From positions 1,280,001 to 1,344,000 of the forward strand of contig CAWBZI010000001.1 of the NCBI GenBank assembly GCA_963793265.1: a stretch of DNA of 64,000 bases, written 5' to 3'. Below are positions 9,366 through 13,475 of the stretch, one piece after another. How positions within the stretch are numbered: position 1 is the first letter of the stretch; every line of letters starts with the position of its first letter. The notes beneath the pieces were generated by a model. The model did no database searches. It worked only from the letters and a program-made list of their open reading frames with translations, and was not told the origin of the DNA. The translations under genes and the position numbers were made by a program. The stretch comes from an uncultured cyanobacterium. GTDB taxonomy: Bacteria > Cyanobacteriota > Cyanobacteriia > Phormidesmidales > Phormidesmidaceae.

Positions 9366-10274
9366 CTACTCAAAGCCAAGCAAGTCAAAGATATCGCGAT
9401 CCTTCAGCGGCTCAATTTCAAGCGGCGTCGCATCGTCAATCATGGTCTTTGCAAGCTTCAAATACTCATCCTGAACTGTCTTCACTTCAGGATCAGTGTC
9501 CTCCATTTCAAAGACAGTGCACTTCTTCAAACGGCTGCGACGAATCGCATCTACAGTTTTGAAGTGAGCCAGCGTCTTGAGGCCAACGCGGTCATTGTAC
9601 TTATCAATCTGATCAGTGCCCTCGCTGCGATTAGCAATAATGCCGCCTAAGCGAACCTTGTAGTTCTTCGCCTTAGAACGAATGGCCGCGACAATCCGGT
9701 TCATCGCAAAAATAGAGTCGAAGTCGTTAGCCGTCACAATCAAACAGTAGTGCGCGTGCTGCAAAGGTGCGGCAAAGCCACCGCAAACCACGTCGCCCAA
9801 CACGTCAAAAATAACAACGTCAGTTTCTTCAAGCAGGTGATGCTCTTTGAGCAGCTTCACCGTTTGACCCGTGACGTAGCCGCCGCAGCCAGTACCCGCA
9901 GGTGGCCCGCCCGCTTCAATGCACTGAACGCCGTTATAGCCTTCAAACATGAAGTCTTCGGTCTGCAGTTCCTCTGAGTGAAAATCGACCTCTTCGAGAA
10001 TGTCGATCACCGTAGGCACCATTCTCTTAGTCAGGGTGAAGGTGCTGTCGTGCTTAGGATCACAGCCAATTTGGAGGACGCGCTTGCCGAGCTTGGAGAA
10101 TGCGGCTGACAGGTTAGAAGAGGTGGTGGACTTGCCAATACCGCCTTTGCCATAAACAGCGATTACCAGCGCGCCTGTCTCTATTTTCATAGAGTCATCC
10201 ATATGGACTTGAACGCTGCCTTCGCCATCTTCACCTTTTTTGACTGCGGGGGGACGAACGGTTGAAGCTACCAA
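9366..10274 (-). CDS. chlL: DPOR iron-sulfur ATP-binding subunit L (BchL/alpha-cyanobacterial type)
   Basis: [33 protein letters not shown] and [15 protein letters not shown]-terminal DGEGSVQVH extension; TTG start with AGGAG upstream. Confidence 0.96.
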
Positions 10275-10356
10275 AATAATTCTCCTGTTTTCTTGTCGGG
10301 TTCTAAAAAATTGAGCGGACTGGAAGGAACGGTTTTGAAATAGTCTGCGGACTTAT

Positions 10357-12036
10357 CTATTTACCGATCGCTGCTTTGGCCTCGTAGAGCGTGTCTACTG
10401 TAATAGAAGAGATGCCGCGATCGCCTGCAAACTTCTCTGTGTTCCGCTTCACCTTGCCACGCACAAAGAAGGGAATCTTCTTTAGCTCAGCTAAGCCATC
10501 TGCACTCCAATTCACACCGTCTACTTCAACATCAGCATTGGGGACAGCTTCCGGCTCAGACCCCATCGCTTTAGCGTCGGAGTTCGCCGCAATTGGCGCA
10601 AAGTCGACGTTTGTTTCCTCGGCGGCGTGGGGCGCAGTATGCAAATGGCTCATATGGCCTTCTGCAAACTCAAAGTCCTCGCGGAACATCCCTATTAGAT
10701 GCTCCTCCAAACCCATCATTAATGGGTGAACCCAGTCATCAAAAATTACATTTGATCCTTCCCAGCCCATTTGGGGTGAGTAGCGAGCCGGAACATCCTG
10801 CACGTGAATTGGGGTAGAAATCACCGCGCAAGGAATGCCTAAACGTTTCGCAATGTGGCGCTCCATCTGGGTGCCGAGCACGAGTTCAGGCGCAGCTTCA
10901 GCAACCGCTTCTTCTACCGCTAAATAGTCATCACTGATCACCGCTTCAACGCCGTGCTGCTTAGCAACTTCTCTCACCTGGCGGGCGAACTTGCGGCTGT
11001 AGGTGCCGATGCCGACCAGAGTAAAGCCAAGCTCTTCAGTGGCGATTCTTGCAGCGGCGATCGCATGAGTCGCATCACCAAAAATAAACACCCGCTTACC
11101 CGTGAGATAAGTAGAATCTACCGAACGAGAATACCAGGGAAGCCGTGAAGCCCCTGCTGGCGCTGAAGAAGACAGACGAGAAGCGCCCCAGCTCCCTAAT
11201 GTATCTGCATGAGAACGCTCGATAGCACGGCTCACGTCAATGCCAGCGACTTCACCAATTTCGGCTAAGAAATCACGAGTCGCACCCACGCCAATCGGCA
11301 CCGTTTTTACAACCGGCTGATCAAAGTTGCGCTTTAGCCAGTCGCAAGTAGTCTGCGCGATCTCAGGATACAAACAGATATTGAAGTCTGCATCGGGCAT
11401 CCGCATCAAATCAGCAGGTGTCGCGCCTAAAGGTGCAACAACATTGGCATCTACACCGATTTCAGCTAATAGCTTCAACACTTCTTGAATGTCGTCGCGG
11501 CAGCGGAAGCCGAGCGCTGTCGGGCCAATAATGTTGGCCTTGGGTCGAATAACAGGATCGCGTGCGGGGCGCTTTACGCCTGGGGCGTAGGCTTTGTCGA
11601 GTAGGAGCGATCGCACCAAATGATACAGCGTCTCACTCGCCCCCCAATTCTCCTTTTTAGAATAAGCAGGCAGCTCCAGGCTCACAACCGGCACCGGCAG
11701 ACCCATACTTTTCGCCAAGGAGCCCGGCTGATCTTGAATCAGCTCCGCCGTACAGCTCTCGCCTACCAGCATTACATCCGGCTTAAACCGATCGTACGCT
11801 TCTTGCACAGAAGTCTTCACCATCTCTGCGGTATCACCCCCCAAATCTCTCGCCTGAAATGTGGTGTAGCTCACCGGAGGCCGCTTATCTCGGCGCTCAA
11901 TCATCGTAAACAACAAATCGGCGTAAGTGTCACCCTGGGGCGCATGAAGAACGTAATGCACGCCTTCCATCGAAGTTGCGATTCGCATTGTGCCAACGTG
12001 GGGTGGGCCTTCGTAAGTCCAGAGAGTCAGTTCCAT
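10357..12036 (-). CDS. chlB: DPOR subunit B (BchB/alpha-cyanobacterial type)
   Basis: [34 protein letters not shown] and GTQMERH; C-terminal PCP_red domain [18 protein letters not shown]. Start moved to ATG 12036. Confidence 0.96.
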
Positions 12037-12125
12037 AGTTAAAACGTAAAGGCTAAAACGTAAAGTTCGAGGAGGCAAATAGAAGAGAGAATCGATTCTT
12101 TGGGTTAGTCGCTACGAGCTAAGCG

Positions 12126-13475
12126 CTATACAGACAGTCGTCTGCGTCGTTCTGAAGAGCGCACAAACAGCTCAGCCAAATCGCCCGCCTGGTCGTAGCC
12201 GTGCAAAGGAGAGAACACCAGCTCAATTGACCACTTTGTTGAAAGCCCTTCAGCTTCCAGCGGATTGGCTAGGCCCAAACCACAGACCGTAATATCAGGC
12301 CGCGCCTCACGACAGCGATCTAGCTGCTTCTCTACATCTTGACCTTCAGAGACTGCCGTACCGGCTGGCAACAGCTTAATCTCAGCGTCCATCAACATCC
12401 GGTCAATATAAGGTGTGCCGACTTCAACTAGCTCCATGCCACATTCTCTTGATAGGAAGCGAGCTAACGGAATCTCTAGCTGAGAGTCAGGGAACAGAAA
12501 AGCCTTGCGGCCTTCGAGCGTTTCTTTGTATCGAGCTAAGCCTAAGTTTGCTCTAGCAACAGAAGGTGCGATCGCCCCTTCAAATTTCGCCTCATCCAAG
12601 CCCCAAGCATCTGCCGCTGTCTTCAGCCAGGCTGTTGTGCCCTCAACGCCAAAGGGATAGGGCGAAGGGAGTAATTCTGCACCGCGACTGATGAGCGATC
12701 GCACCGTGTTGCTCAAAAAGGGCTGAGCCACCAGCATCTTTGTCCCTTTACCCACCGCAGGCAAAGCCGACGCCCGACGAGGCGGAAAGAACGCCACCGG
12801 GCCAATCCCCATCTTGTCAAACAATCGTCTGAACTGATCTTCAACAACATCCGCCAGGCTACCGACAATCAATAGCTCAGCTTCTTCAGTCTGCTTGGCA
12901 GGCAGCACCGGCACCATCGAGTCCAAGCAAGCATCTTCGCCTTCAGTAAAGGTGGTTTCAATGCCGCTGCCCGAATAGTTAAGCACTCTCACCTTCGGGA
13001 AGTAGGCATGGTTCAGCTTTTCAGCCGCCTTTGCCAAATCCAGCTTAATCACTTCAGAAGGGCAAGACCCCACCAAAAATAGCGTACTAATATCAGGCCG
13101 ACGGCTCAATAGCTGCGCGACCACACGCTCTAGCTCATCGTTAGCATCAGCTAAGCCCGCCAAATCGCGCTCACCCAGCACCGCCGTCCCAAACCGGGGC
13201 TCGGCAAAAATCATCACGCCTGCCGCCGACTGAATCAAGTGGGCACAAGTCCGAGAACCCACCACCAAAAAGAAAGCGTCCTGCATTTTTCTATGCAGCC
13301 AAACAATTCCCGTTAGGCCGCAGAACACTTCTCTCTGGCCGCGTTCTTTTAATACAGAAATATCCTCTCTAACGGCCAGGTCTTTACCCGCCAGGTCTTT
13401 GGAGGCCAAATCCTTAGCAGGTGAATCGACACCCGTTGTATCGGTTGGAATTTGAGTGCAAGGCTCTAGCGCCAT
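12126..13475 (-). CDS. chlN: DPOR subunit N (BchN/alpha-cyanobacterial type)
   Basis: [36 protein letters not shown] and [14 protein letters not shown] carry the three Fe-S Cys; also TKWSIELVF. Confidence 0.96.

Follow-up and report, generated by a model that had tools for sequence, protein, structure and literature searches.

Why does a cyanobacterium with a beta-carboxysome carry a dark-operative protochlorophyllide oxidoreductase (DPOR) of the purple-bacterial type? The question is raised by a chlN-chlB-chlL operon at positions 9366-13475 of a 64,000-nucleotide stretch of DNA from an uncultured member of the Phormidesmidaceae (assembly GCA_963793265.1, contig CAWBZI010000001.1, positions 1,280,001 to 1,344,000), hereafter the window. 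A first-pass annotation of the window had proposed that the whole enzyme was acquired horizontally, either as a replacement or as a second copy. We found that the operon replaced the native enzyme of its host, and that the same swap runs through the whole genus of the host and at least five other cyanobacterial lineages.

DPOR reduces the C17=C18 bond of protochlorophyllide. A ChlL dimer passes electrons from ferredoxin through its 4Fe-4S cluster, gated by ATP, to the cluster of the ChlN-ChlB (NB) complex. The canonical enzyme of beta-cyanobacteria and plastids shares this reaction and the plan of its cluster ligands with the purple type. The available text of Sousa 2013, Ward and Shih 2021 and bioRxiv 2021.05.26.445609 names the Synechococcus/Prochlorococcus group alone as purple-type among cyanobacteria, and that of Corless 2021 calls P. 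marinus 'one exception'.

A purple-type DPOR operon

The three genes lie on the minus strand in the order chlN (13475-12126; 449 aa, DPOR subunit N), chlB (12036-10357; ATG start, 559 aa, subunit B) and chlL (10274-9366; TTG start, 302 aa, the reductase), all of the purple type, with 89 nt between chlN and chlB and 82 nt between chlB and chlL. A purine-rich ribosome binding site is present 6 nt 5' of the chlL TTG, and the starts of orthologues coincide with this start. Each product passes the NCBIfam model of its own family, ChlN with 496 bits against a cut-off of 420 (TIGR01279), ChlB with 600 against 490 (TIGR01278) and ChlL with 443 against 345 (TIGR01281). With the NifH, BchX/Y/Z and CfbC models, the three products all scored below those models' cut-offs. 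The ChlL, ChlB and ChlN motifs on which the first-pass annotation had based its assignment were all found in the translations.

Over ChlN and ChlB together (N+B) the operon products are 62-74% identical to purple-type enzymes and 35-37% identical to the canonical cyanobacterial enzymes, and ChlL is 54-56% identical to canonical ChlL. When compared with chains in the PDB, ChlN scored 585 bits with 2ynm_C, 565 with 8vqh_A and 3aek_A, and only 249 with 2xdq_A. ChlB scored 794 bits with 2ynm_D, 683 with 8vqi_B and 344 with 2xdq_B, and ChlL scored 541 with 2ynm_A and 454 with 3fwy_A. We take 2xdq to be the canonical enzyme of Thermosynechococcus. The 2ynm chains are those of the P. marinus DPOR (Corless et al., PMC7948495).

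In the alignment rows printed, to which all our statements on ligands and motifs refer, ChlN C52, C77 and C138 align with the three cysteines of the solved structures, ChlB D36 with the cluster-ligand aspartate and D307 with the proton donor D274, and ChlL C130 and C164 with its cluster ligands; the Walker A motif that DPOR requires is present together with these ligands and the proton-donor aspartate. ChlB H437 and M441 align with the di-copper ligands H404 and M408 of R. sphaeroides. His and Met occupy these positions in 23 of 23 purple-type rows but in neither of the two canonical rows, which have Asn and Leu there. Substitution of the di-copper ligands abolishes DPOR activity in R. sphaeroides (PMC12022308). 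ChlB also has an insert of about 19 residues that is common to the beta-cyanobacterial sequences of this type (hereafter the beta clade), and residues 16-24 of the N-terminal tail of ChlL match the nine-residue capping motif of BchL; this tail was found in 7/7 beta-clade ChlL rows, two of them with small changes. These alignments agree with the earlier claim that the Fe-S ligand motifs are intact and suggest that the operon encodes a DPOR which is probably functional. The reaction and electron path would follow from the family (Bryant 2020; Fujita 2015), and the enzyme is predicted to work alongside the light-dependent protochlorophyllide oxidoreductase (LPOR) of the host, which was found in the genome above the model cut-off.

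The operon replaced the native DPOR

The host assembly has 7 contigs that add up to 5.68 Mb, with a completeness of 98.97%. A tblastn search of this genome, in which the queries were the operon's own products and the canonical ChlN, ChlB and ChlL of two other genera, yielded no second DPOR set or remnant; the only matches were this operon, NifH/NifD-like sequences and a small homologue of the ChlB C-terminal domain. A second, beta-type chlLN/chlB and por had been singled out for a genome-wide search, and of these only por, as the LPOR, was present.

The native locus was recognizable as a scar. A DUF5331 gene adjoins chlL on one side and chlN on the other in 3/3 genomes examined from the sister genus, and in one of them (G212) gyrA and a 315-aa open reading frame (ORF) lie just upstream of these genes. 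In the host, gyrA, the homologue of this ORF and the DUF5331 gene are found together at C1:623578-629396 (74-76% identical), but chlL and chlN are gone. Therefore the native chlL and chlN were once resident at this locus and were then lost. Since canonical chlL, chlN and chlB are absent and the native locus has been emptied, the purple-type operon replaced the native enzyme and is not a second copy, which settles the choice that the first-pass annotation had left between the two.

Five HIP1 octamers lie within chlB and chlN, exactly where they had been reported (10417, 11057, 11607, 12568 and 12695; range 10417-12702, no strand assigned). The genome rate predicts 4.98 in the operon, and over 2000 synonymous recodings the mean was 0.32 and none reached five. 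Among 2,347 long host ORFs, the operon falls at the 39th-73rd percentile in GC content at third codon positions (GC3) and at the 63rd-96th in codon fit. HIP1 density and codon use match those of the host, in keeping with the long residence that had been suggested.

DUF5331, which normally lies between chlL and chlN, was retained after the loss of both genes in the host (C1:623578-623961) and in genomes G032, G138 and G436, and was not found in G130 and G365. It probably has a role apart from the canonical DPOR. The stand-alone small homologue of the ChlB C-terminal domain lies at host C1:603995-604159, and similar matches occur in carrier and canonical genomes alike.

Distribution of the purple-type enzyme among cyanobacteria

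Purple-type ChlN was found in 43 of the 46 genomes of the host's own genus, with 82-90% identity outside fragments, and canonical ChlN in none. When completeness of 90% or more and contamination of 5% or less were required, the count was 36/36. A separate count for purple-type ChlB in the genus gave 32/36. The 28 genomes from ten other genera of the same family were all canonical. The trait is thus genus-wide and not peculiar to the strain. The nearest named ChlB records are those of Phormidesmis sp. (93%), P. priestleyi Ana (86%) and Synechococcus sp. PCC 7335 (85%), and we therefore refer to the genus as Phormidesmis-like.

A draw of 401 genomes from the class, in which at most four candidates per genome were scored from among the matches listed and the type was assigned by best E-value, gave 58 genomes of this type, 279 with a canonical-level match and 18 with no match; family f2 was of the picocyanobacterial type in 46/46. 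The 58 carriers belong to the host's own genus (19) and to genera g5 (33/33), g57 (3/3), g67 (2) and g100 (1). Within family f5, the Pseudanabaena-like genus g5 had the purple type in 45/48 genomes, with no match in the remaining three, and its sequences mix with those of named Pseudanabaena in the tree. Genus g125 of the same family had it in 1/3, and 13 matches in eight other genera of f5 were canonical. The genus to which the Dolichospermum record L042 belongs had the purple type in three of 20 genomes, with 15 canonical and two that yielded fragments; named Dolichospermum proteins of this type sit on contigs of 4.8-5.4 Mb. The ten genomes of g67 divided into two purple-type, six canonical and two without a match, and family f36 had the purple type in 1/4. 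Besides the Pseudanabaena-like and Dolichospermum genera, the swap recurs in three additional families. None of the genomes surveyed had both DPOR types, and five carriers checked for both ChlN and ChlL had the purple type only. Misbinning could account for the placements of L041 and of G398, the latter on a contig of 5.4 kb.

L040 and L041, metagenome-assembled genomes (MAGs) of Nostocales and Pseudanabaena, respectively, have identical N+B rows; one of the two contigs is probably misbinned, or else a transfer was very recent. Four small genomes of family f5 that are 97-99% complete (G243, G265, G281 and G415; genera g117, g125 and g130) had no ChlB match, a possible loss of DPOR. Two records titled Microcystis elabens FACHB-917 (L100) and Aphanothece stagnina RSMan2012 (L102) fall inside the picocyanobacterial clade, with a GC content of about 0.70, and are probably Cyanobium relatives under old names.

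Probable transfer between cyanobacteria

GyrB sequences from 28 hosts gave a tree, weak at its deep nodes, in which six lineages have carriers nested among canonical relatives. The grouping expected under vertical descent (picocyanobacteria with the host's own genus and g57) was rejected by the approximately unbiased (AU) test (p-AU 3e-5). When pairs of hosts from different families were compared, the purple-type sequences were more alike than the canonical sequences of kin hosts in 9/9 pairs, which are not independent, by 1.8-11.5 points where GyrB distances were similar; the opposite held for a tenth pair, one member of which was a picocyanobacterium. Repeated transfer between cyanobacteria fits this pattern, and the immediate donor to the host was most likely another cyanobacterium.

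The Dolichospermum copy is nested among Pseudanabaena-type sequences and is 94.6% identical to one of them, compared with 83.1% for canonical kin. The GC3 of its chlN-chlB-chlL cassette is 0.43-0.45 as against 0.23-0.35 in six flanking genes, and mnmA beside the cassette is 93-97% identical to that of congeners. A search of five loci also found, on a Dolichospermum-genus chromosome, a 22-residue piece of canonical chlL beside DUF5331 (E 9e-5). Judged by these comparisons, the transfer into Dolichospermum is recent.

In-place replacement was considered for the new locus in the Dolichospermum genus and rejected: mnmA, which flanks the cassette, is far away from chlL in each of the three canonical chromosomes used for comparison. 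The flanks of the cassette differ among most genomes compared. The Mg-chelatase H subunit (ChlH) of the host is only 38-47% identical to Gemmatimonadales BchH; therefore only N-B-L moved and bchH was not co-transferred. A search of 50,697 phage records gave no ChlB homologue and one of 72,556 plasmid records no cyanobacterial match; the search thus revealed no vehicle, although both record sets may lack the relevant hosts. In L168 (13795-15057), a Dolichospermum-genus chromosome of G436, the acquired operon has an IS605-family TnpB gene between its chlN and chlB, both of which are unbroken.

Origin of the purple-type cassette

An N+B tree was built from 46 of the 106 collected rows (LG+C20, 917 columns). 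Gemmatimonadales were represented by two named records and by genomes from the same family as one of these, and Proteobacteria by named records and a phylum draw in which 16/301 genomes matched. In this tree the beta clade (100/99) and the picocyanobacteria (100/100, stem 0.42) are sisters (99/95), and a Gemmatimonadales subgroup is next (99/94). In a ChlL tree of 51 rows, the beta clade (96/86) likewise groups with the picocyanobacteria (98/94), within a grade of Gemmatimonadales, and the Proteobacteria are separate (100/97). A ChlB tree with 14 outgroup rows, a result that rests on LG+G4, is rooted among the Proteobacteria, and the beta clade plus picocyanobacteria (95.8/86) is nested under a 98.7/100 node. 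The purple-type clade was placed with 100/100 apart from canonical cyanobacteria by FastTree and the rooted ChlB tree, and a single clade of all cyanobacteria was rejected on ChlB (p < 1e-4, log-likelihood difference (dlnL) 227). The p-values for ChlB were obtained with our own multiscale-bootstrap code on IQ-TREE site likelihoods from short constrained searches. The proteins thus branch outside the canonical beta-cyanobacterial and plastid clade, and this bears out the proposed horizontal acquisition of the whole operon. The resemblance to the Rhodobacter and Prochlorococcus/Synechococcus type that had been read from the motifs was right as to the purple class, but the nearest relatives form the separate beta clade.

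Apart from three Prochlorococcus loci with a displaced chlL, the beta-clade and picocyanobacterial loci are N-B-L without bchH, whereas the Gemmatimonadales record L056 and four annotated proteobacterial records have the order N-B-H-L. The shared N-B-L order therefore supports one cyanobacterial capture. Taken together we consider the following account highly probable. The purple-type enzyme is the sole DPOR of the host. Its arrival, in the form of a compact N-B-L cassette, would predate the radiation of the genus, and the native split genes (chlL-DUF5331-chlN, with chlB elsewhere) would have been deleted afterwards. The beta-clade cassette would have moved repeatedly among distant cyanobacteria, each time ending in replacement. 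A single capture most likely underlies both the beta and the picocyanobacterial clade: an N-B-H-L operon would have been taken from an aerobic anoxygenic phototroph resembling Gemmatimonadales and would have lost bchH.

Several points weigh against this account. A FastTree of all 106 N+B rows joined the beta clade to Gemmatimonadales (support 95) and not to the picocyanobacteria. On ChlB alone, a grouping of the beta clade with Gemmatimonadales was not rejected (p 0.36), and neither was a root on the cyanobacterial side (p 0.09). The sampling of the trees left out the phototrophic Myxococcota. Finally, for the oldest host pairs the purple-type sequences exceed the canonical ones in similarity by 2-5 points only, and at such values early spread and very old inheritance are hard to tell apart by distance alone; gaps this small place the early transfers far back in time.

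The FastTree topology, in which three gammaproteobacteria join the group, and the ChlB test would be expected if the beta clade had been captured from Gemmatimonadota apart from the picocyanobacterial event, which would make two cyanobacterial acquisitions, and raw N+B identity is also highest to Gemmatimonadales (median 70.6, compared with 68.9 for picocyanobacteria). We nevertheless think such an independent capture unlikely. The beta clade and the picocyanobacteria are together in the C20 N+B, ChlL and LG ChlB trees, and the AU test on N+B narrowly rejects the beta clade with Gemmatimonadales (p 0.030, for a group named after the FastTree result). In addition, bchH would have to have been removed twice and in the same way.

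It is less probable again that the polarity is reversed, so that the purple-type enzyme would be ancient in cyanobacteria and Gemmatimonadota and Proteobacteria would have received it from there. The root test above, in which Proteobacteria plus Gemmatimonadales as a single clade are not rejected (dlnL 32.7), and the long outgroup branch would allow this, and Sousa et al., in the text available, deem the polarity unsettled. However, the freely rooted ChlB tree has its root among proteobacteria and the cyanobacteria beneath a well supported node, N-B-H-L lies inside photosynthesis gene clusters in 4/4 annotated proteobacterial records, and the scars mark the canonical genes as the residents.

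Hidden paralogy, in which early cyanobacteria held both types and differential loss produced the present pattern, we judge very unlikely. The depth of the beta clade (79-93%, 9 rows) nears that of the canonical enzymes (71-97%, 20 rows), and families f36 and f5, which supply the deepest beta-clade rows, are far from the host family in the GyrB tree. Yet no surveyed genome has both types, and the grouping of picocyanobacteria with the host's own genus was rejected. For Dolichospermum the explanation is largely refuted by the greater identity of the copy to the Pseudanabaena type than is seen among canonical kin, and by its GC3 contrast with the flanks.

If a crown picocyanobacterium (Cyanobium, Synechococcus or Prochlorococcus) had been the direct donor, the shared N-B-L order and 2ynm chains as the top PDB matches would be expected, but this origin is refuted at present sampling: the picocyanobacterial sequences form a clade of their own, and the beta clade nested with five Cyanobium-like rows was rejected on ChlB (p 0.003). 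An assembly chimera or contaminant block, for which nothing speaks in the host genome whatever the status of single MAGs elsewhere, is refuted outright, as the operon lies on a 1.9-Mb contig, orthologous operons are present in the 43 congeners, the ftsY-chlN adjacency recurs in L032 and the chlL-higBA-Uma2 adjacency in L044, and contigs of run X1, which may be the source sample, bridge chlL to downstream genes with operon and flanks at an even depth of ~11.

Gemmatimonadales DPOR falls into four pieces in the N+B C20 tree, and three gammaproteobacterial MAG sequences (L083, L096 and L103) join one piece. In three Prochlorococcus loci (L047, L049 and L106) chlL is inverted and lies upstream of chlN on the opposite strand.

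Host and genomic context

The host is a beta-carboxysome cyanobacterium. On the plus strand of the window two ccmK genes, ccmL, ccmM, a ccmN-like and a ccmO-like gene lie at 47187-52648, with BMC, EutN_CcmL and five RuBisCO_small domains; CcmM has five RbcS-like repeats. A search for CsoS2 was empty in the host and likewise in every control. HIP1 is dense, with 6,884 sites in the genome. Of the host markers first named, the ccm genes and dense HIP1 were therefore present, and cupB is only plausible: Pfam identified a ChpXY (Cup) gene at 41800-43011 and cannot split CupA from CupB. The gene order makes the cupB label plausible. Homologues at C1:1258456-1260954 we take to be rbcL-rbcX-rbcS.

A hairpin of 13 pairs lies 3' of chlL (9294-9326, minus strand; fold z = -4.05, with 0/200 shuffles folding equally well) and is likely the terminator of the operon; it is absent from the minus-strand terminator list because the coding-strand U run has only four bases. 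Thus, as regards the N-B-L operon ending in a terminator that had been described, the gene order was correct and the terminator is likely. A promoter scan found no coding-strand site 5' of chlN (2 sites, 3.3 expected). The neighbours of the operon are ftsY and higBA, and there is no photosynthesis gene cluster and no bchF-N-B-H-L-M order. The higB-higA toxin-antitoxin pair and a Uma2 gene (window 8047-9242) lie directly beyond the terminator, and L044 has the same adjacency. An inverted-repeat element resembling a miniature inverted-repeat transposable element (MITE) lies 5' of chlN (13761-14013, no strand assigned), with 48-nt arms that are 79% complementary; it has 34 blastn matches across the host genome and so is not operon-specific. 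A look-alike of this element, judged by eye, lies between chlN and chlB in the Dolichospermum record L042 (5608-6003).

Discussion

The closest known system is the picocyanobacterial ChlLNB of Prochlorococcus, marine Synechococcus and Cyanobium (2YNM), which is likewise of the purple class, has the L tail, replaced the native enzyme and forms the sister clade in three trees. Unlike it, the present enzyme occurs in a host that keeps a beta-carboxysome and HIP1, is only 64-70% identical over N+B, and belongs to a clade with its own ChlB insert. The beta cassette moves alone, into variable contexts, and is patchy across families, whereas the picocyanobacterial type is fixed in one family. The BchN-B-(H)-L of Gemmatimonadales and Proteobacteria, including R. 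sphaeroides and R. capsulatus (8VQI, 3AEK, 3FWY), aligns with ours at the ligands, the proton-donor aspartate, the L tail and the two di-copper positions; here, however, no bchH lies between B and L, and the host is oxygen-evolving and makes chlorophyll a. Compared with canonical ChlLNB (2XDQ), in which the genes are split, the three genes here form one operon. Canonical ChlL is without the N-terminal tail; in R. sphaeroides this tail lies over the cluster and, as long as ATP is not bound, reduces activity by half (Corless et al., PMC7948495). The preprint of that work, in the part available, offers oxygen protection by the tail as a proposal and not a measurement, and in the journal version the biological need is left undecided. 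The native DPOR of Leptolyngbya boryana has an O2 limit of about 3% (Fujita 2015).

We hypothesize an oxygen advantage of the purple-type DPOR. The cassette could have swept beta-cyanobacteria since an enzyme with the L tail and a putative NB di-copper site, the latter seemingly missing from the canonical DPOR, may work better in oxygen. The beta lineage could have been the first among cyanobacteria to receive it, from a donor resembling Gemmatimonadales, and could have passed it on to Prochlorococcus/Synechococcus; this whole reading we put forward tentatively and are inclined to doubt. A simpler alternative is that replacement would run one way even without selection, because a single transfer suffices to move the 4-kb cassette, whereas the native genes lie apart.

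The ChlL of this lineage was glimpsed once before. Tahon et al. 2016 (PMC5165242) placed a 'Phormidesmis priestleyi Ana-like' ChlL cluster among proteobacterial BchL in one sentence on a tree of short chlL amplicons, and the text of that paper available to us does not mention chlN/chlB, an operon, replacement, spread through the genus or other genera. This remark on P. priestleyi Ana ChlL slightly reduces the novelty; the observation stands. 'Pseudanabaena' is absent from the main text of Sousa, Chernomor 2021, Ward and Shih, and Fujita 2015, as is '7335' from that of Sousa, Chernomor and Fujita, and the accessible parts of PMC9600594, 10.64898/2026.01.15.699626, PMC12587747, PMC9758169 and PMC10576062 have nothing on this point. 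We found no report of whole-operon replacement or its spread in the literature as far as it was available, in which figures or supplementary trees may show such taxa unremarked. The multi-lineage replacement with its own clade is apparently new.

The second cyanobacterial clade breaks the long branch that had left donor and direction open, and it points to Gemmatimonadales and not to purple bacteria. Amplicons of chlL/bchL from these genera can be mistaken for those of anoxygenic phototrophs. The carriers and their canonical relatives also provide natural matched pairs, with cultured strains among them (Synechococcus sp. PCC 7335 and Pseudanabaena spp.), in which the oxygen tolerance and copper need of the DPOR types may be compared. 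A core multi-subunit enzyme of photosynthesis has thus been swapped whole several times within the cyanobacteria, once so recently that one genus includes species of either type.

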